In this document: in pieces, positions 17,063 to 64,000 of the stretch
Layout: the number at the start of each line of letters is the position of its first letter
Position numbering within the stretch: the stretch's first letter is position 1
DNA from: Vicugna vicugna
Lineage: Eukaryota
Assembly: GCA_013265495.1 (NCBI GenBank)
Contig: MU058054.1
Location: forward strand, 62,001-126,000
Length of the DNA: 64,000 bases
Reading direction: 5' to 3'
Notes under the pieces: model-generated
The model's input: the letters and a program-made list of their open reading frames with translations, nothing else
Databases searched by the model: none
What the model was told of the DNA's origin: nothing
Program-made: the position numbers and the translations under genes

Positions 17063-17252
17063 GTAAACAAGTTTCTTCTGTATAGCACAGGGAACTATAT
17101 TCAATGTCTTGTAGTAACCTATAATGAAAAAGAATATAAAACGAATATATGTATGTATATATGTATGGCTGAAACATTATGCTGTACACCAGAAATTGAC
17201 ACACTGTAAACTGACTAAACTTCAATTAAAAAAAAAAAAAAAGGTGGGAAGA
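17063..17252 (+). mobile_element. Short young L1 3' end with 15-bp TSD
   Basis: TSD aagagaaaa(t/c)gccct at 17048 and ~17253; poly-A at 17228-17242. Confidence 0.87.
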
Positions 17253-21777: not shown

Positions 21778-22539
21778 GTTCCTAATATTTGACATATATT
21801 ACAAATACAAGTTTGGTGATATATATTACACCAAAGGCATCAGAGATCACAATAGGTCAGTTTTACTCCACCTTAAATAAAGTAAGATAGCATTATAGCA
21901 ATTAAAATTACAAGCTGATTAATGCATCAAATTCTATTAATATCTAGACACTAATCAAATGATGGGGAAACACAGTAACTGAAGGTTCAAGTATTCATTA
22001 GTAGTATATAACCATGATCAAGTGTATACCTGCAAAGTACACGTATCCACTTGAAAAAGTCAGGTGAAATACTATACATCTAAGCTCAAATCCCCTTTTA
22101 TAATAATTAAAACCATTTACTTACTTAAATAATCGAAAATAGTCATTTGTTTCAGATGTCATTAATCCTTGAAAATCAAAAACTGAATTCAAAGACTGGT
22201 AGTAGTCACTGGGTTTTAATTTTCTAATTTGTAAGGGTTATTATGAAATATTTATCAACAATCTAAAACATTACACTTTAAAAACATTTATATTCTTGGA
22301 AACTTTTTAACATTCACTGGTCAGCAACCATCACTGAAGACTTGAATGTACTTTTTTTCTGTCTAAAACAGCTTTTACGTATTTGATTTTTGTCTAAAAT
22401 TGAAAGATCCTTATCATCATCTGGATGCTATTACCACATGTAAATTTCATTATGAATAATAAACTGGGTCAAAGTCAAACTCAAAAATGAAAATGTATCC
22501 CCCAAAAGAAACCAAATAACCATTATAGAATAATCTTAC

Positions 22540-22984
22540 CTAGACTGGTGGGTTTTATCAGTTCATCCAGTAAGTCATAAAATGGTAATTTTTGAAGTTT
22601 TATATCCGGATGGACTGGGTGAAGAGCTGATGTTAGATGTGGGAGTTCCAGTTCATGTTTAGGTCCCAGAAGAGAAACAGGGAGTAACGGTGATGATGCA
22701 GGGTGACCGTCATAAGTGAGCTGTGGAATGGTAGATGGAGACAAAGTTGCTGGCATAGGACTTGAATGTACGTTGGGGATGGACAAGTCCGCAGGCGTCA
22801 TGATTTTCTGGGGGAACCTCCGCCTATAGAGTTCTTTAATTTTCATTTGTACAGCAGGACTGCAGCCAGCCTTTAGCAAATGCAGGGCTTTTGTGAGAAG
22901 TTCGTGTTTGCGTCCGTGCTTGTTTCTCCCGGCGTAGCCCAACAGTACTTGGAGCTCAGAAACTCTAAGGCTCATAACCATTTG
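22540..22984 (-). CDS. PIAS1: PIAS1 coding exon 2 (SAP domain with LXXLL motif, running into the start of the PINIT region), 445 nt
   Basis: Acceptor ttttgtctctaag|CAAATG and donor CTAG|gtaaga. Translation QMVMSLRVSELQVLLGYAGRNKHGRKHELLTKALHLLKAGC...LPFYDLLDELIKPTSL matches mammalian PIAS1 and is in frame with exon 1. Confidence 0.98.
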
Positions 22985-24909
22985 CTTAGAGACAAAACAA
23001 AACGTAAATATTAGTATTCAACAGTATAGTCTGCAACATTAAACAGTACTTTATTATAATACTTACTCCTTATGCTTTGCTTAATGGTCAGCTCATTTAC
23101 AGTCAATTCTACTCATTTCAAACTTAGAATTCAACCATTTAATGTAAGTAACCAAAGAAACTTAAAATTAATATTCATAAATTCACTAACATGTACCGAG
23201 GGTTATAGAAGATGTAAAATATATACCAGGTAGAGCCACATCTCACCACATTTCACTGTTACAATGGAATTTTCAGGTATTTTTATCAAACACTGAGGAT
23301 TCAGGAGAGTGCTGAGTGGATGGCAAAAGATAATAATGAGCCCTCAAGAACATTTGTTTTCTTGTAGAAAAATTATGTAAGTATGTATGAAACATAGACA
23401 GCCCACCTCAAACACCAGATGTAGGCAGCATACAAATAACATTACCAGGCATTACATTCTACACTAACTTGGGTATTATTATAGGGCTTAAACCATACCT
23501 TTTTTACCCATTATATACCAGATACAGTTGATATTTCATATGGGTTGTCACTAAATCTTTTACAACTCCACGAGGTGTCATCCTTCCAGCTTTACATATG
23601 AAGAAACTAGTTAAGAAAGGTTAAATAACTTACCTAAGGCTGTGTAGCAACTAAGTAGCAATCAGGATTCAAACCCAGATACGCATGATTCTAAACCCCA
23701 TGATCTTTCCACTAAACCATTTTGAAAAGGATGACGCTGGAAGCATTATAGACTTTCTCTACTGTTTGCAAAGCCAGGCTAAGAAGTCCCAGAATTTAAT
23801 CCACATGCATGAGGCTGTGGTAAAGAAATCTATTTAACTTTAACTCTATATTGTCAAACTTACTCGGTCACTCTCCTTTTTCCCCAACTACTAAGAGGCT
23901 ACCAACAGGAAATGCCCATCTACACCAATTCTCTCACTTTAAAGTTGAGGAAAATGAAATCCAAAGATCACACAGCTATTAACAACAAAAACACATGACT
24001 GACTCACTCGACTGGCATACAGCTATGAACAGCAGAACCCTGACTTTACCATCGACAGGGAGATGTCAGGATGAAAGACATGTAAGCTTACCATTTGCCC
24101 TCTATTTTCCCAAATGTTTTATCCTTTCACCTTATCAAAGTACCAGTAACACAAAAGCTAAGCTGTCTTCCCTAATTTCCTTCTACTCCCTGAGATATCC
24201 ATCCCAAGCCAATCATCTAGAAACTGAAGTTATTTGCAGATTACAAAACAATTAAAAAAAAAAGTGAGAAAAAAAGTGTACAAACAGCTTTATATACAAT
24301 ATAGCTGGTTAATCAAAGAAGTATGAGCCTTTTCCGGCCTGGAGAATGCTTTGTTTCCTCAAAGCCAGCTTTTGTCATCAGCCTTGCCCTCTGGGCCTAG
24401 CAAGACTTAATGACACTCTTCACACTACTTTTACTGGCCATTGTTCATCTCTTTATTTTAGCACTTACCTTGCTGTATTATAACTTTCTTTTCATACAAA
24501 TGATTCCATGATCAGACTGAGGTCCTCTATGGTACAAAGTCGTGTTATCCTCAGCATCTAACACTAGTGCCCAACGATAGTAAAAAACTCATCAAACGTC
24601 TGGACAATGAATGAACGATGAACAAAGTAAACAAGAAAGTCACACAAAAAGAAAGAGTGGAGATGGATTCTACAGTGCTAAGTTACACACATAACTATAA
24701 TATAAATCCAAATGAACTCTCAAGCTCTTATGTTCACCAATGTAGACCTTAAAAACAAATTCTACCACAAATCCTATAAATGTTTTTTTTAGATTATGTT
24801 ATCAGAAATTAAATAATTACTAACTATAATGTCAGCAGGATATCAGTTTCTCCATACTATCGAAACTGTCCTAAGAGTACAAAATAGTTTTAAAAATTTT
24901 TGTTACTTA

Positions 24910-25027: not shown

Positions 25028-25765
25028 ATTACTTATTTTAAAAGGAATGGGGATTTCAACAGAAAAGCCCTAAAAGTAAGCCTCTGCTTTTAGAGAAATA
25101 GCACAAATTATGCTTCAAAGATTATAGGTTAAAAATAAATTTAAGTTGGCACTGGTCAGATGTATTTCGTTTTACAGAGAAAACAGGATAAATTTTTAGA
25201 AAGAAAAGAATGTCTTCCATTTCAATTCAACTCCATTCTCCTAAGTCAAACACAAACAAAAACCAAAATTCAGTGGGTATCCATAAACTTACGGCAGCTC
25301 CGTCCTGACTCTATAGGTATAGGATTTAAAAACAACAGAGACGTATTATTGTTCTATTTTTGCAAGAACACGTTGACAATTAACATAGAATAAAATCTCT
25401 TGCTTGATGAACGACAGAAAAAAGTTAATGGCACAGGTATATAATTTTTGTTTTTGCTTTCACAGGATGCATAATTAATCATCACAATTATGAGGCAGGT
25501 GTTGTCCCCAGTTTATAGATGGGAAATCTGAGGCCTCAGAAGGTTAAGAAATTTGTTGAATGTTACACAACTAGTTCTACTCTAAATATACTTTTATACT
25601 ATGCTAGTGTCTTTTAGAGGAAACAAACCACATGCCTTTTAATTAGGAAACAGAAAAACTTTAAAAAAGATCAATTTATTTAACATCTTCAAGTTTCAAC
25701 ATCTTTGGCTTTAAAAAAAAATTAGTGGTTAAGATAAAAGAAAACATCTGGATTAAAATTAACCA

Positions 25766-26841: not shown

Positions 26842-27721
26842 AAAAAAAATTAGTGGTTAAGATAAAAGAAAACATTTGGATTAAAATTAGCCACTGCACC
26901 TTATTATCAGGTATAGTGAAAGATGAGAAGGTATCTGTTGCTATTATTGGAGCAGCTGCTGTATATTCTTTAGGACAGTAGTAAGCACGCCTTATTTAAA
27001 AAAAAGAAATAAAACAGGACAGGAAACACAAACATCTGAAGTATCACCCAACTGGAAAGCTTCAGAGAAGCATGGAACAGTCAATTCACAACGTAAAGTG
27101 TTGACAACACAGAGGAAAACTAAACACATCTGAGATGCTGAAATGCAGTACATTTTTATCTTTCATGTGTTTGAAAATCTCCATTTGTTAGCACTACAAC
27201 AAAATGAATATTTATAACTAAGGATAATATCAACCACTGCTACTTCTAGAAATCATTACCTCCTCAGACAGCATTCTGCTGACTCTTCATCCCCAAATGA
27301 TACAGTTCTCAGAATCTTAGAGAAAGCATTCTGTGAGGGGCATCTTTTTGAAATTAATCTTTTTAATCAGCCAGACATGCACACAGCTTCAAAAGTCAGT
27401 TTTACAAGTAAAACAGATGTCCCTTGCCCCTCTCACATTTTTCACATCCCTAAGGCAACCAACTTTCACATCTTTTTAGTGATTTCTTCTGGCATTTTTC
27501 ACTATATTCCACTATCTAAGGCTAGAGCTATTTAAAATTTTTTCCTTTTAGGAAAAAAACTGACTTCCTATTAAAAGATAATGGTTTTGATCTGTTTCAT
27601 CTCCTCTACCTCTATCTTCCCATCAAAATTTTTGGTTGAATCAATTGTTGGTGTTTATGTTATTACTATGGCTGTTAAGTAATATTCACAGCTGAGCCAA
27701 AAGCACATTATGATTACTGCT

Positions 27722-28131
27722 CCTTTTTTTTTTTACATTTTTTATTGATTCATAATCATTTTACAGTGTTGTGTCAAATTCCAGTGTTCAGCACATGTTT
27801 TCACTCATTCATGGACATATACACACTCGTCACATTTTTTTCTCTGTGATTTATCATAACATTTTGTGTATATTTCCCTGTGCTATACAGTGTAATCTTG
27901 TTTATCTATTCTACAATTTTGAAATCCCAGTCTATCCCTTCCCACCCTCTACCCCCCTTCTCTGGTAACCACAAGTCTGTATTCTCTGTCCATGAGTCTA
28001 TTTCTGTCCTGTATTTATGCTTTGTTTTTGTTTGTTTGTTTGTTTGTTTTTTAGATTCCACATATGAGCGATCTCATATGGTATTTTTCTTTCTCTTTCT
28101 GGCTTACTTCACTTAGAATGACATTCTCTAG
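27722..28131 (-). mobile_element. Young L1 3' end, sense to PIAS1, inserted in an older minus-strand L1 (~27350-29640)
   Basis: Reverse complement of the L1 3' end also present at 55891; poly-T on the left; TSD tactgctcctttttt on both sides. Confidence 0.87.
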
Positions 28132-31415: not shown

Positions 31416-32356
31416 AAGTACAACTACAACATAGTACAGTACTAGTTTACATAGAATTCAGATTCTAGTACTGAGTCGGCCACTGATTTATTGAATCACA
31501 ATCTTTCAGGGTCTATTTTCTCACTTCAAAAATGAGACTGAGTAGATGTTCTCAAAGGTTCCTTAAAATTTCAAAATTCTATAATTCTATGACTGTGTTA
31601 AATGAAATCTTCTCATTCTTCTACTCTTCCACCGTTAATGAAATACAACAATCTATATAGTAAGTGAAATATCTATTAGCAATGCTTTCAATCAAAAATT
31701 TAAGTGTCATACATGGGTTGATAAAGTAAAAATGATAAACCTAATACATGTTAAGTGCTTATAACATGTCAATTACACACTAGTTATAGTAAGCATGATT
31801 ATCTTATTTAACCCTCACATGAACCCAAGAGACAGACTAATATCATTCCCATTGTATGGATAAGAAAACTGATGCTAATCCTGAGGTCAAACAATAAGTA
31901 AGTGATGGAGATGGGGCTCAAACCTGACCTGACTCCAGAGCTTAAACTCATAACAACTAACCAGCACAGGTGTCTTACCACAAATCTCAGCCAGGATAGT
32001 TAAGTGTTACACTGGGATGAGGGCACTAAATGACAGTTAAAGAAATTAGACTATACAGAGAGTGAACAAGCACTGGAATAAATGCATATATACTTGGGGA
32101 CAGTAAAAACGTGATAGAAATAGTGTCTAAGGTCATTCGTGTAGCCACCTATAGGATGAATGAAAAAAACTAAGAATTAAGACTTTCAGCTAAAAGAGAT
32201 GGCAACAAGGAAGAATTATTTATCTCATTATAAGGTAAGAAAGAACTGTGACAATGGAAATAAAGGAGACAGTACCAAGAAATACTGCAAAAAAAAAATC
32301 TGCAGGTTCCATTCAATATTCTAACTAAAGTGCATCTTTTAAAAAGTAGTGCTAAA

Positions 32357-32706
32357 GGGGAGGTTGAGCCAAGATGGCAGAGCAGAGACTCACGTTCGCC
32401 CTCTGCCAGAAATACACTAAGAATTACATCTACAAACCCACTGAACCGCACAGAACACCCACTGAACTCCGGCAGAGTGTCTCTCATTTCAAAATACAGG
32501 AGGAGTCTCACAAAATCTGATAAACAACAAGTTTATACTGTATAGCACAGGGAACTATATTCAATGTCTTGCAGTAACTTAAGGTTAAAAAGAATATGAA
32601 AACGAATATATGTATGTTCCTATATGACTGAAACACACCAGAAATTGACACAATATTGTAAACTGACTATACCTCAATAAAAATATATTTAAAAATAAAA
32701 TTAAAT
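32357..32706 (+). mobile_element. Mini-L1: L1 5'UTR start fused to L1 3' terminus, flanked by a TSD
   Basis: Starts GGGGAGG..CAAGATGGC (L1 5' start with YY1 site). At 32519/32520 it joins ATAAACAACAAG...TATAGCACAGGGAACTATATTC, the L1 3' end seen elsewhere in the window. AATAAA at 32676; TSD AAAAAGTAGT(G/A)CTA at 32341 and 32707. Confidence 0.8.
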
Positions 32707-32721
32707 AAAAAGTAGTACTAG

Positions 32722-33306
32722 GCCCAATGGAAGGCAGGCACGTCATTATGCTCCGTGCCATGAAAATGAGGATCAAGTGCTGGAACAGTGTGGCCACTTG
32801 TCTCGTGGTGGCCAACGATGAGCATCTGCTAGACAGCCTTCAATGGCTGCTGCCCAGACTGCAAGGTGCTGGGTGACGGGCGCCCCTTGGTGTGGGGCCA
32901 GTGCTCGCACTGTTTCCACATGCACTGCATCCTCAAGTGGCTCAGCGTGCAGCAGGGCCAACAGCACTGCCCCATGTGCCGCCAGGAGTGTAAGCTCAAG
33001 GGGTGAGGCTGCGCTGGGCCTGGATGCCCCTTCCCCTTGCTCTGGGATGGGCCCCTCACAAGTGGGTTTGGGTGGCCATGGTCTCCACTGGGGACAGTCC
33101 TCTCTGGGCTATGACAGGGCTGAAACAAGGACTGAAGCTGCATGTGTTTTTTTCCATCTCAATGCTGGACACTTTTTTCTAATTAAAGCCATGGTCTCCA
33201 CTGGGGACAGTCCTCTCTGGGCTACAACAAGGCTGAAACAAGGACTGGAACTGCATGTGTTTTTATCCATCCCAATGTTGGACACTTTTTTCTAATTAAA
33301 AAAAAA
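32722..33306 (+). pseudogene. ANAPC11: Processed pseudogene of APC/C subunit 11 (RING-H2)
   Basis: ATG at 32760 gives MKMRIKCWNSVATCL.VANDE; after a small deletion and a TAG it continues AFNGCCPDCKV...PLVWGQCSHCFHMHCILKWL..QQ.QQHCPMCRQE.K to TGA at 33004-33006. Followed by 3'UTR, ATTAAA, A tail and TSD agtactag (32714 / 33307). Confidence 0.95.
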
Positions 33307-33599
33307 AGTACTAGACATGATCATGAGAACAATCATCCACTTTTCAAATAAAATCTAAAATTTTAAAATAATAAGGCTTTAAGAAAATTTAAGTTTATCA
33401 AATTATAAAAGATTGACTATCCTTTCACAAATCCAGCAAGTAGCGGAGCTCAGACTCAAAAGTCAGATGCTAGTCCACACAATGCTGCAGAGTACTGACA
33501 ATGACAGACACTATTAGGTAATCTGAAAGCGATGTTTTTTAAAACTGTAGAATAGTAGGATTATCACGTAAAATAAAACTAGAAATCTTCTAGTTCATC

Positions 33600-55890: not shown

Positions 55891-56148
55891 ACAGACATAG
55901 AATACAAACTTGTGGTTGCCAAGGGGGCAGGAGGTGGGAAGAATAGACTGGGATTTCAAAGTTGTAGAATAGATAAACAAGATTATACTGTATAGCACAG
56001 GGAAATATATACAAGACCTAAGAGAAAAAAACAATGAATATATATACATGTTCATGTATAACTGAAAAATTGTGCTCTACACTGGAATTTGACACAACAT
56101 TGTAAAATGATTATAAATCAATAAAAAATTTAAAAAAAGAAAAGGAAA
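55891..56148 (+). mobile_element. Young L1 3' end with perfect 16-bp TSD
   Basis: TSD aagaccaaatgtggtt at 55875-55890 and 56149-56164. Confidence 0.9.
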
Positions 56149-56349: not shown

Positions 56350-56997
56350 TGATGCAGGAAAACGGATGTGGGGCATGAGGAGGGCCATGTCCCAGGTCTT
56401 GGTGGAGCCCCTGTGGTGTGCCCCACCAGGCGTGGGTTCTTGGCTTCTCACAGGAAAGAATTCAAATGTGAGCCACAGTTGAGTAAAGGTAGAGTTATTT
56501 AGAGAGATACATACTACATAGAGTGTAAGGCAAGAGAAAGGCAAGGAAAGAGGTGTAGAGTTGGGTGCTCAGGTTAAAGTAAATGTAGGTACTCACTCCA
56601 TAGACAGAGTGCAGGCCGTCTCTGAAGAGGAGGGAGTGAAAAAGGGCCGCTAGGCGTGGTGTTGCCAGTTTTTATGGGCTCGGTAGCTTCACACGCCTAC
56701 AGGTGGGACCATTCCAACTACCCTGGGGAAGGGGCTGGGATTCCCAGGAATTGGGCCACCGAACATTCTTCGGCCTTTTGTGGTTCACCTTGGACTGTCA
56801 TGGCGCCAGCAGGCATGTTATTTATCATTATAGGCTGTTACAATGAGCATATAATGAAGCTCAAGGTCTACTAGAAGTCAAACCTCCTGCCAACTTAATC
56901 CTCAAGATCAACTGGGAGTTGAATCTTCCACCATTTTGATGTTAAACTGCTGTCATTCTTTGAATGGCTCTGCCCTGCCCCCTTCCCTCCTGTCTCA
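56350..56997 (-). mobile_element. ERV1-type solo LTR (648 bp)
   Basis: TG...CA termini, 4-bp TSD cttc/cttt; minus strand begins tgagacaggagggaagggggcagg with a TATA-like cccataaaaa. Confidence 0.82.
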
Positions 56998-57439: not shown

Positions 57440-57950
57440 TGAGACAGGAGGGAAGGGGGCAGGACACAACCATTAAAAGGATGGCATAGCAATTAGCACC
57501 AAGATGGCAAAAGATTCAACTCCCAGTAGACCTTGAGCTTCATTATACACTCATTGTAATAGGTTAGCATGGTAAATGGCACTCCCACAGGTGCCATGAC
57601 AGTTCCGAGGCTATCCATAAAAGGTCAAAAAGTGGGTGGTGGCCCAATTCCTGGGAATCTCAGCCCATTCTCCAAACTGACTGGAATGATCCTCCCATTT
57701 GTTAGCATATGAAGTTACCCTGCCCATGAAAACTAACAACCCCACACCTCGTGGATGATGTCACTTTCCCAGACAACTCATGCTCTGAGGCTGCTGCCTC
57801 TCACCTCTCACCTCTCACCTTTTTCCTCTTGCCTCTTGAGATAGCCCGCATTCTGCCTTTGGAATGTGTATCTCCTACGTCTGTCTATGGAGTGTATCTA
57901 CTTTTACTTTAACCACCCCCACACCTCCCTGCACTTTGTCTATGGAGTAA
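57440..57950 (+). mobile_element. Related ERV1-type LTR, 3'-truncated
   Basis: Begins with the same tgagacaggagggaagggggcagg and aligns for ~300 bp with the reverse complement of 56650-56997. Confidence 0.8.
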
Positions 57951-57954
57951 ATGT

Positions 57955-60900
57955 GTACAAATCCCATACCTCCACAGAAACATGGAAAAAAACAACCAAA
58001 AGCTGTCAGATCAACTTTATTGGAACTCTGGAAAACAGTCAAAGGTTTACAGCAATCAAGAAAATGCTTATTATTATTATTTTATAAAGGCAACTTAAAA
58101 ATGGTAAGAAAATGGTATGACAACTTTACTTGCCCCAGCCCTGCTCCCTCCCTGTCTCCCAGGGTGGAACCCTGGTCCCTTGTGATCATTGTGTTTGTTC
58201 CAGTCTGTCTAGGGGATAGCTGAAGGACTAATTCAAAGCTCTAGCCTCTATTTTACCTAACGTGGAATCCACAGCAAAAAAAGCAGTAGGCATTGCTTGA
58301 AAACACTGTTATAAGGTGAACAAACAACCTGCAACTGCCTGGGGCCAAAGACTACAGTTGGTGCATACAGTAGACCGCCTAAACTCTGGAAGTAAACCTG
58401 GGGAGATAAATATGCTGGGGAATTGGGACATTCAAATTCAAAAATGCTTGTGAACACAAGGGCATTTAGAGAGCTACACATATGCCTGAGACAAGATGCA
58501 TTCTCAGGAAAGACCCAAGAAGATACTGAGATTCTACCATTGTCTATATGCTCAGTGCTACCAGGAAGTGAAGGTTGAGAAAATTTCAAACGGCCTAGCT
58601 AAGTGTTAAAGGAATCCCCCTACACTGAGCCAACTACAAAGATTGGGAGAGGGTGTTGTTTTTATTTTTTATTATTATTATTGTTATTTTTTATTTTTAT
58701 TTTTATTTATTTATTTTTTTTAAGTTACCAGTGTTCAAGGAAATCTCAATAAAAATACTGGCTAAATACAAGCTGAGGCTTCAACAATCAAGAACAGCAT
58801 ATTCTGGGGAAGGTAGATTGTGTGAATTCCAGAGATAACCCATATATCATTCAAATGTCTAGCTTTCAACAGCAACAAAAAATCACAAATGTAGAAAGAA
58901 ACAGGAAAATATGGTTCATACAATGAAAAAAATAATTGACAGAAATTATCCCTGAGGAAGCTCAGACATTGAACTTATTATACAAAGACTTTAAAACCAC
59001 TATCTAAAGTACTCTCAAAAAACTAAAGGAAACCAGGAAAATGATGTTTGAATAAAATGAGAATATCAATAAAAAGATGGAAGTTATTAAAAGGGACCAA
59101 GTATAAATTCTGGAGCTGAAAAATATGATACCTGAAATGAAAAATTCACTAGAGGAGTTCAAGAGCAAATCTGAGCAATCACATGAAAGAATCAATGAAC
59201 TTGAATATAAGACAACTGAAGTTATTCAATCTGAGAAGCCAAAAGGAGAAAAAAATGAAGTGAACAGATCCAAAGGGGCCTGTAGAGCACCATCAACTGG
59301 ACCAATATACAAGTTATTAGAGTTACAGAAGGAAAAAAGAAAGAGAATATTTGAAGAAATTTTGGGCAGAAAATTTCCAAATTTGATGAAATACACAAAT
59401 ACACATACCCTACTCCAAGTAGGGTAAACTCAGATTGATTTATGAGACATATTATAGTCAAATTATCAAGGCCCAAAGACACAGAGAGAATCTTGAAAGC
59501 AGTAAGAGAAAAACAGTTTATCACATACCATCATCCTCAATCAAATTAACAGCTGATTTCTCATCAGAAACCATAGAGGCTAGAGAGCAACAAGATGGTA
59601 TATTTAAAGTACTGAAAGAAAAAAAAAACTGTGAGATAAGAATTCTATATCCAGCAAACCTATCATTCAAGAAGGAAGGAGAATATAAGATATTCCAAGA
59701 TAAATAAAAGATAAGAGAGTTTGTTACTAATAAACCTGCCCTAGAAGAAATGCTAAAGAGAATCCTTTAGGTTGAAATGAAAGGACAGTAAATAGTAATT
59801 TAAAGCCATATGAAGAAATAAAGAACACTGGTAAAGGTAACTACATAGATAAATGTAAGAGTCGGCTTTATTGTACTTTTAGTAACTCTCCTGTTTTTTC
59901 CTACATAGTTTAAAAGACAAAAGCACAAAATAATATCTATAAGTCCATGTTAATGGACACACAAAGTGTAAAGATACAATATGTGATAGAAATAATATAA
60001 AGGAGGAGGGACAGAGTGGTGTCAGCAGAATGTTTGTATATTATTGAATTTTAGCTGGTACTATTCAGATGAGGTTGAAAAATCACTAAAATATGTACAG
60101 AAAAGGAAAGAAGAAGGGAATCAAAGCACCACACAAAAGTCAACCTTTTTTAAAAGACAGCAATGGAGGAATTGAGTAATAAAAAGTATGTAAATCATAA
60201 AGAAGACAAATAGTTAAATGGCAGAAGAAAAATCCTTTCTTATCAATAATTACTTTAAATGTAAATGGTTAAACTCTCTATTTAAAAGACAGAGATTGTC
60301 AAAATGGATTTTAAAAAACATAATTCATTTACATGCTGTCTACAAGAAACATTCTTTAGATACAAAGACACAAAGTGGTTGAAAGTAAAAGGATGGGGTA
60401 AATTATTTTACACAAATAATAACCAAAAGAGAGCTATGGTGGTTGTATAATTATCAGACAAAATAGATTTTAAATCAAAAAAAGGTAATAGGAGGCAAAG
60501 AAGAACATTATATACTGATAAAGTTAAAAAAATCTGTTCTGCCAATCTTTGTCTTTTAATTGGAGAGTTTAATTTGTTTACATTTATATTGATAAGAGGT
60601 TTAATCCACAAAGAATATACAACACATATAAACATATATGTACTTAATGACAGTGCCCCAAAATATATGAAGCAAATACACATGAAGCATTCTCAAGAAT
60701 AAACTACGTGTTAGATCACAAAATAAGTCTAATAAATTAAAAAATATTGAAATCATACAAAATATTTTTCTAGCCACAATGGAATGAAACTAGGAACCAA
60801 TAACAGAAGGAAAACTAGAAAATGCACAAATATGTGGGAACTAAACAACACTTATAAATAGCCAATGGATCAAAGAAGAAACCACAAGATAAATTAGAAA

Positions 60901-61741: not shown

Positions 61742-64000
61742 TCCCTCGGTTAAATTTATTCCCAAGAATTTTATTCTTTTTAATATTATTACAAATGAAA
61801 TTATTTTAATTTTCTTTTAAAAATTGTTCCTTGCTAGTGTATAGAAAGACAACTAATTTTTCTGTGTTGATTTTGTATTTCACACATTTGCTGAATTTGT
61901 TTAACTCTTGAGTGGAAATTTTTTTGTCATGTAACTTAGCACACTTAAAAAAATAGTAAACCAAACAAACTTAGAGGGAAACTTACAGTCATACATACCA
62001 TATTAGAAAAATTTAAAGGTTGAAAATCAATTATGTAAGTTTCCATCTCAAGAAGATATTAGGAGAATAGCAAATCAAACTGGCAGTAAGAAAATAATAA
62101 AAAAATGAGAGCAGAGATAAAATTTAAAACAAATATGAAATAGCAAAGATCAACAAAGCCAAAAGTTGGCTATTTGAAAAGTTTACTAAAATTGGCTACC
62201 CCCTAGTAAAACTGATCAAGAAGAAAAAAAAAAGAGAAAGAAATGATCATTGTCATGAATGAACAAAGGATCACTACAGATCCTACACACACTAGAAAAG
62301 ATACTTTAAAAAAATACTATGAGCAGCCTGATTCCAATACAGTGGATGGTTTAAACGAAATGAACAAATTCCATAAAACATACAACTTATCAAAACTGAC
62401 TCATATCCAAGAAAATGAAAATAGACCTACATCTATTTTAAACAGTTGAATCCACTATTTTAAATTTTCTTACAAAGAAAACTCCAGACACAGATGATTT
62501 CACCAGTGAATTTTCCAGACAATTAAGGAAGAAATAATACTCAATCTTAATAAATGGATAAGGAAGTTGTGGTATATAGATAGAAGGGAATTTTTTCAGC
62601 CATGAAAAGAATGAAATAATGCCATTTGCAGCAACATGGATGGACCTAGAGATTATCTTACTAAGTGAAGTAACTCAGAGAAAGACACATATCATGTGAT
62701 ATCACTTACATGTAGAATCTAAAAAATGATACAAGTGAACTTATTTACAAAACAGAAATAGACTCACAGACATAGAAAACAAACTTATGGTCACCAAAGG
62801 GGAAAGGAGGGAGAGGAATAACTTAGGAGTTTGGGGTAGTAGATTCTAACTACTATATATAAAACAGATAAACAACAAGGTCCTACTGTATAGCACAGGG
62901 AACTATATTCAATATCTTGTAATGAACTATCATGGAAAAGAAAAGAATACAAACAAACAAACAAAAGGACAAAATAATCAATCTTAAAGTCTTCTCAAGG
63001 ATACAAAAAGATAGAAAAAGGTATAACACACTCAACACTTTATGAGGCCAAGACTGTGAAACCAAAATCTGACAAGGATATTACAAGAAAGGAAAAGTAT
63101 AGGCAATTCTTTCTCATTCTCATAGGGATGAAAATCTTCAGCAAAGTCTTAACAAAATGAATCCAGTAATACAGACATAAGCATAAGGGAGGAGAGAGGG
63201 TAAAGCTCAGTGGTAGAGCACATGCTTGGTATGCATGAGGTCCTGGGTTCAATCCCCAGTAGCTCCACTAAAAAACAAACAAATAAATAAACTTATTTAC
63301 CTCCTCTCAAAATAGAAAATTAAAAAGCCAAAAAAGAAAAAATAAAAGAAGAGGAAGAGAGAGGAAATTCTTTCTTTAAAAAAAAAATATATTATATATA
63401 TATATAAAAGCATAATGGAATATAACAAAGAGGGGCTTATTCTAAGAAAACAAAAAAATGTTGAACATTTGAAAACCAACCATTTTAATTCACCACATTA
63501 ACAGAAACCAAAAGAGAGAAATGATATGATCATGTTGATAGAGGCAGGAAAATCATTTAATAAAATTTAAACACCTATTTGTGACACTAACTTTAATAAA
63601 CTAGTAATAGAAGGAAACGCCTTAATACGATTATAAGTATCTATCAAAAACCTACAGGAAACATACTTAATAGTAAAATGTTGAAAATATTTCTTTTGAA
63701 AACAAGAATGAGACAAAGATGACAAGGTAAGAAGAAGGAAAAAAATCAGGATTGGAAAGGAAGTAATAAAACTGTTGTTCACAGAGAACATGATGGTGCG
63801 TGGAAGAAAACAGCAAAGCATTCTCGGAAAAACTATTAGAATTTACTAATAAGTGAATTTCATTGGATACAACGTGAGCTACCAAAAATCAATTATATTC
63901 CTATATAACAGGAATAAACAAATAGAAGATGTAATTCAGAAAAAGATGCCAATTACAGTTACATTTTAAAAATAACAAAAAAAAAATCAGAACACATCTT
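61742..64000 (+). mobile_element. L1 ORF2 fragments, including a short inverted piece (61742-61910) and a nested young L1 3' end (62551-62970)
   Basis: Decayed RT-region sequence; nested element flanked by aaataat(ac)tcaatcttaa duplication. Confidence 0.8.
63187..63400 (+). mobile_element. tRNA-derived SINE inserted into an L1
   Basis: aagctcagtggtagagcacatgc...gtcctgggttcaatccccagtagctcc, long A-rich tail, approximate TSD aagcataa. Confidence 0.85.

Follow-up and report, generated by a model that had tools for sequence, protein, structure and literature searches.

The window, by which we mean the whole 64-kb stretch of DNA that was analysed, is mammalian and AT-rich apart from a single GC-rich island at ~52-54 kb, and is presumably from a camelid-like genome. 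A host gene exon encoding a SAP domain (PF02037, E 2.6e-05) lies at 22523-23017 on the minus strand, and the GC-rich island contains, near 53 kb, a short first exon of the same gene, which by its sequence we take to be PIAS1. The positions and strand of these exons place the short L1-derived element described here, referred to as mini-L1, in intron 1 of the PIAS1-like gene and antisense to it. Searches against Rfam returned eight matches in the window, to tRNA-like SINE heads, none of which overlaps mini-L1. The element does not have the small-RNA-derived head of a tRNA-derived (Pol III) SINE, its head matching L1-type 5'UTRs.

Mini-L1 lies on the plus strand and occupies 352 bp between two TSD copies, beginning with two A and continuing as a head of 163 nt and a tail of 187 nt. 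The 5' TSD copy (32341..32354) stands directly 3' of an L1 endonuclease-type site, TTTT|AAAAA, and is followed by the two extra A (32355-32356). The head, an L1 5'UTR segment identified by its likeness to related heads and to the protein entry P0002 (see below), spans 32357..32519, begins GGGGAGG..CAAGATGGC and bears at 32370-32377 the sequence CAAGATGG, which we take to be a YY1-like motif. It is joined at 32519..32520 (CTG|ATA) to an L1 3'UTR tail (32520..32706) that begins ATAAACAACAAG, has counterparts among the L1 3' ends of the window and contains a canonical poly(A) signal at 32676 ahead of a decayed A-rich tail. The second TSD copy (32707..32720) is identical to the first at 13 of 14 positions, extendable to 14 of 15; random trials yielded an equally good match 26 times in 20000, rising to 322 in 20000 under a stricter null that required the left anchor to sit on a TT|AAAA site. 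The preliminary description of this DNA had proposed an L1-like start of about 163 nt, a jump at 32519|32520 to the last ~190 nt of an L1, a poly(A) signal with A-rich tail and a 14-bp TSD, and these features were recovered as described. Mini-L1 is a bipartite L1 structure bearing the hallmarks of TPRT.

Within the window, the tail has matches at E<=1e-10 to five further L1 3' ends, of which the closest, at 17066-17231, differs from it by 15 mismatches in 139 aligned bases (a substitution difference of ~11%), which indicates that the mini-L1 insertion is old. Near 32633 the tail has ~10 nt absent relative to four other window copies, a gap that is usable as a marker of shared descent among mini-L1 copies. 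A second copy of the head was not found within the 64-kb window. A 48-codon frame runs through the head (32374-32520), opening at the ATG within CAAGATGG and closing at a TGA formed across the junction; it gave neither a Pfam match nor a homologue, and is probably a product of chance.

Directly downstream on the same strand lies an intronless, frameshifted processed pseudogene of ANAPC11 (32722..33299; PF12861 zf-ANAPC11, E 5.5e-26, at 32833-33003), which the preliminary description had missed and whose 3'UTR contains a 113-bp tandem duplication (33075-33187 and 33188-33300, 92.9% identity). Its 3' boundary is formed by an A tail together with another TSD copy, the third and a more decayed one (33300..33314, the copy itself at 33300-33313), to which the second TSD copy is identical at 13 of 15 positions. 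The copy at 32707..32720 is the 3' TSD of mini-L1 and probably served also as the 5' TSD of the ANAPC11 retrocopy, so that three target copies surround two inserts, pointing to two TPRT events at one site. A single co-insertion of both elements was considered and is ruled out by the TSD copy between them. The TSD would regenerate the cleavage motif and so permit two insertions at one site; tandem insertion at one site is known for Alu. The mismatches between TSD copies (1/14 for mini-L1 and 2/15 for ANAPC11) do not set the order of the two insertions.

Relatives of the head were collected by a motif scan of metagenome contigs, which gave 18 matches, of which nine were unrelated and dropped and nine were kept. 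The kept sequences are copies of one mammalian repeat, 77-89% alike, and eight of them are 65-73% identical to the head of mini-L1, the ninth being without most of the head. They have a sharp 5' start ~83-95 nt ahead of the shared motif, near CAAGATGG-type sequence, and run GC- and CpG-rich to the ends of their contigs (58-63% GC and 18-32 CpG in the first 500 nt past the shared motif) over at least 0.6-1.2 kb, without reaching ORF1. We take these nine heads to be L1 5'UTRs of cetartiodactyl type, a label based on their features, as the contigs stop short of ORF1. One of them, L018, carries a ~44-nt tandem duplication around the shared motif. A closer, unspliced relative was obtained from protein searches with the reading frames of the head, which among 1.84 billion proteins returned a sole match, P0002 (E 1.5e-04), a spurious antisense gene call. 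Upon degenerate back-translation, 136-139 of 167-169 alignment columns of P0002 are compatible with the mini-L1 head, and the two agree at 72 of the 95 fixed positions.

These relatives were used to examine the donor side of the junction, the splice origin having been made to depend in the preliminary description on a GT directly past the head. In MAFFT alignments (three modes), the first tail base of mini-L1 falls exactly over a GT in eight of the nine related heads and over a GC in one, while pairwise alignment sets the end of the head 1 nt earlier in eight of nine and at the exact position in one. With each of the four gap settings, P0002 reads R-T-A directly past the end of the head, followed by a purine-rich run resembling the unspliced heads. 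The donor is read from relatives that are 65-76% alike, not from the camelid parent, and the R in P0002 could be A. GT occurs at 3.3% of positions in the related heads, or 9.7% with 1 nt of slack either way. The putative donor is weak, matching the consensus at 5 of 9 positions in most related heads. The CTG ahead of the junction is head-derived in all relatives, and the donor and acceptor sides have 1 nt (G) in common and no more.

On the acceptor side, YAG is found ahead of ATAAACAA in all three window tails with intact upstream DNA (CAG at 62868, TAG at 55973 and TAG at 27905 on the minus strand), an observation that was made post hoc, whereas the donor had been predicted before testing, so that only the donor test is independent. 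Three further window tails end short of the acceptor site. Within this set, the tail start ATAAACAACAAG of mini-L1 is found only in the 62.8-kb copy. The other two intact tails (55930-55972 and 27906-27950 on the minus strand) represent a second L1 subfamily with the tail start ATAAACAAGATT, and therefore only the 62.8-kb copy informs the acceptor of mini-L1. This separate L1 3' end of the mini-L1 tail type (acceptor region 62844..62867, plus strand) has TTCTAAC followed by CAG, as had been noted earlier: the branch A of CTAAC stands at -19 with no AG between it and the CAG, in a context without a polypyrimidine tract, and beyond the acceptor the copy is 89.8% identical to mini-L1 over 59 nt. 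The earlier claim of a YAG in other L1 3' ends stands, with the minus-strand tail at 27905 as an additional case; the 55.97-kb copy cited in its favour belongs to the other subfamily. Both copies of the ATAAACAAGATT subfamily are without the ~20-nt segment that bears the branch-point-like CTAAC; that subfamily could be unable to make a 5'UTR-to-3'UTR splice, a lead drawn from two copies only, and loss of the segment could represent an escape from the splice in a sister L1 subfamily.

Splice-type dinucleotides are hence present at both breakpoints as these are read in related elements. Their expected frequency was calculated from random breakpoint pairs (n=4,963,607) drawn from the related heads and the window tails with microhomology sliding allowed, among which GT..AG occurred in 0.49%, or 1.65% if 1 nt of slack is granted, and GTR..YAG in 0.14%, or 0.49% with slack. 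On this evidence, the GT or GC donor in relatives together with the YAG acceptor supports the proposed splice origin, and we consider it highly probable that mini-L1, the single copy in 64 kb on which this reading is based, arose by retrotransposition in trans of an L1 RNA spliced from 5'UTR to 3'UTR and without both ORFs. Because the splice signals lie on the strand opposite to the host gene, splicing of the host pre-mRNA is not involved. In the proposed sequence of events, a full-length camelid L1 would have been transcribed from its internal promoter and the spliceosome would have paired a GT donor ~163 nt from the start of the 5'UTR with a YAG acceptor in the 3'UTR, ~160 nt ahead of the poly(A) signal, and a single intron of several kb, comprising the remaining 5'UTR together with ORF1 and ORF2, would have been excised. 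The product would be a polyadenylated RNA of ~350 nt. As such an RNA encodes no L1 protein, its reverse transcription would have to occur in trans, target-primed by the ORF2p of another L1 at the TTTT|AAAAA site, the same site presumably taking the ANAPC11 retrocopy in a separate event. Both splicing as the cause of the junction and mobilisation in trans are inferred. The copy itself is most likely an old dead end, since most of the CpG-rich promoter region is lost.

A further model, which does not exclude splicing but is a special case of it, is that mini-L1 descends from a spliced mini-L1 master belonging to a Pol II-driven, SINE-like family, with transcription that would start from the 163 nt of head it kept and mobilisation that would occur in trans. 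The head does retain the extreme 5' end and the YY1-like motif, and the tail the poly(A) signal; ORF-less bipartite families are also reported from other LINE clades in the accessible part of a survey (PMC5786205). Against this, human SpIREs with 97 nt of head are described as weak promoters and judged to be dead ends in the portion available of PMC5860796, the GC-rich 5'UTR of the related heads is nearly all lost in mini-L1, and the fold of mini-L1 is not distinctive (z 0.28). Nor would a high copy number prove self-propagation, because an identical junction results each time a full-length L1 RNA is spliced in this way, and recurrent splicing alone yields many copies. We regard this model as doubtful, and equally so the corresponding proposal that camelids carry a SINE-sized, Pol II-driven L1 parasite born by splicing out both ORFs and amplified from its own masters. 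If true, it would give the L1 clade a non-autonomous family of the bipartite, ORF-less kind, and none is listed for this clade in the part available of the 2018 survey (PMC5786205).

The junction might alternatively have been formed during reverse transcription, by a template switch or internal deletion in which ORF2p copied the last ~190 nt and then jumped to the 5'UTR, giving a one-off insert. Template switching is a recognised path to L1 chimeras, according to the text available of bioRxiv 10.1101/2025.02.02.635956, acts in cis and does not require weak splice sites to be used. The end of the head, AAAATCTG, resembles the AAAACAG ahead of the acceptor, an imperfect AAAA..G likeness that could have acted as a guide, and the BLAST match to the 62.8-kb copy reaches 7 nt into the head side. 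The exact microhomology is, however, limited to 1 nt, the head-derived CTG of all relatives indicates that the join was not resolved inside a shared A run, and the chance of landing on GT..AG is 0.5-1.7%, all of which makes this explanation unlikely. Deletion after insertion, in which a full-length L1 later lost its interior by double-strand-break repair, is very improbable: an element ~11% from its closest window relative has had time enough for such a loss and its tail bears another small deletion, but both breakpoints stand on splice dinucleotides and are without long microhomology.

The splice reading was compared with known systems. Spliced L1 RNAs are reported to retrotranspose in humans, where the SpIREs (SpIRE97/622, 97/790 and 97/976; Larson et al. 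2018, PMC5860796) combine one early donor with acceptors in the 5'UTR or ORF1 and, in the available text of that study, number 131 among 6609 full-length L1s. Mini-L1 shares with them a GT donor situated early in the 5'UTR, followed by retrotransposition with TSD, poly(A) and endonuclease site, as well as an intronic antisense position, which is given for 32 of 51 intronic SpIREs in the same partial source (PMC5860796). Of the features expected of a SpIRE, an L1 5' start with L1 sequence on either side of the junction was found, as were the TPRT hallmarks (TSD, A tail and endonuclease site), the donor (GT in 8/9 and GC in 1/9, within 1 nt, in relatives and not in the direct parent) and an AG acceptor with branch point (YAG in 3/3, CTAAC at -19 in 1/3). 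However, the SpIREs described in the sections available of PMC5860796 splice within the 5'UTR or from the 5'UTR into ORF1 and keep ORF2, a definition that does not include mini-L1: its acceptor is located in the 3'UTR, neither ORF remains, its length is ~350 bp, it needs all proteins in trans, and its 5'UTR and lineage are different. Mini-L1 works like a SpIRE yet fits none of the described classes.

Other comparisons concern non-autonomous elements. Like the ORF-less bipartite LINEs RIME, NARTc, Bov-A, RTESINE and the Vingi derivatives (Kojima 2018, PMC5786205), mini-L1 retains nothing but the 5' and 3' ends of its autonomous LINE parent, is non-coding and needs the proteins of that parent. 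The part available of PMC5786205 lists such elements from no clades other than RTE, Ingi, Vingi and R2 and ascribes them to internal deletion, the string 'splic' being absent from that text; they are amplified families, whereas mini-L1 is known from one locus and has an L1 parent and a spliced-looking join. HAL1 is also a non-autonomous L1 derivative without ORF2 but, as described in the accessible part of PMC5786205, keeps ORF1, whereas mini-L1 encodes no ORF1p, contains no ORF1 sequence and has no room for it. With processed pseudogenes, of which the neighbouring ANAPC11 copy is an example, mini-L1 has in common a spliced Pol II RNA as presumed source, copying by L1 in trans and a TSD with A tail; in contrast to these, its source gene would be L1 itself and the start of the internal promoter was carried along.

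Searches beyond the window were performed in several collections. The junction motif gave no match in metagenome contigs or in viral contigs, neither being a camelid collection, and the tail motif none in viral contigs; plasmids likewise gave no match. A single viral match to the head motif was dismissed as a chance match, as were all 28 genome-contig matches (<=29 nt). Among the 24 runs listed from a sequencing-run index, 14 contain at least half of the 34 words sampled: the best run reaches 0.56, and the other 13 come from three organism codes at 0.50-0.53. Six RNA or possibly-RNA runs contain 0.09-0.44 of the words; none of these fractions is counted as evidence. In the literature searched, which did not extend to Repbase, Dfam, the Belancio papers or the repeat libraries of PMC8605555, neither a 5'UTR-to-3'UTR spliced L1 nor a camelid mini-L1 is described, and a library entry for the element may exist. 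The available portions of PMC8605555, PMC2896524 and bioRxiv 10.1101/2022.02.16.480772 contain nothing on mini-L1, and the supplement files of PMC6675863 none of the terms searched.

As a single locus, mini-L1 has no evident function. Should the splice origin hold, it would extend spliced L1 retrocopies beyond primates and to a different L1 leader, and would represent the limit case in which all coding bases are lost. A splice stripping both ORFs would inactivate an L1 transcript outright, and the fossil copy would be a record of such splicing in the germ line. If copies prove numerous, they would provide a natural test of how strict the cis preference of L1 is, using an RNA with L1 ends and no L1 protein, and would show a path from a LINE to a SINE-like element without a tRNA head.

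Several repeats elsewhere in the window were also recorded. Decayed ORF1 pieces of an older L1, unrelated to the head of mini-L1, lie at 59107-59707 (PF17490, E 2.3e-10). An inverted pair of ~250 bp with 74% identity (56652-56896 and 57501-57749), probably two copies of one repeat, lies upstream of the GC-rich island, and a 52-bp direct repeat with 96% identity is found at 25714-25765 and 26842-26893, 1.1 kb apart.
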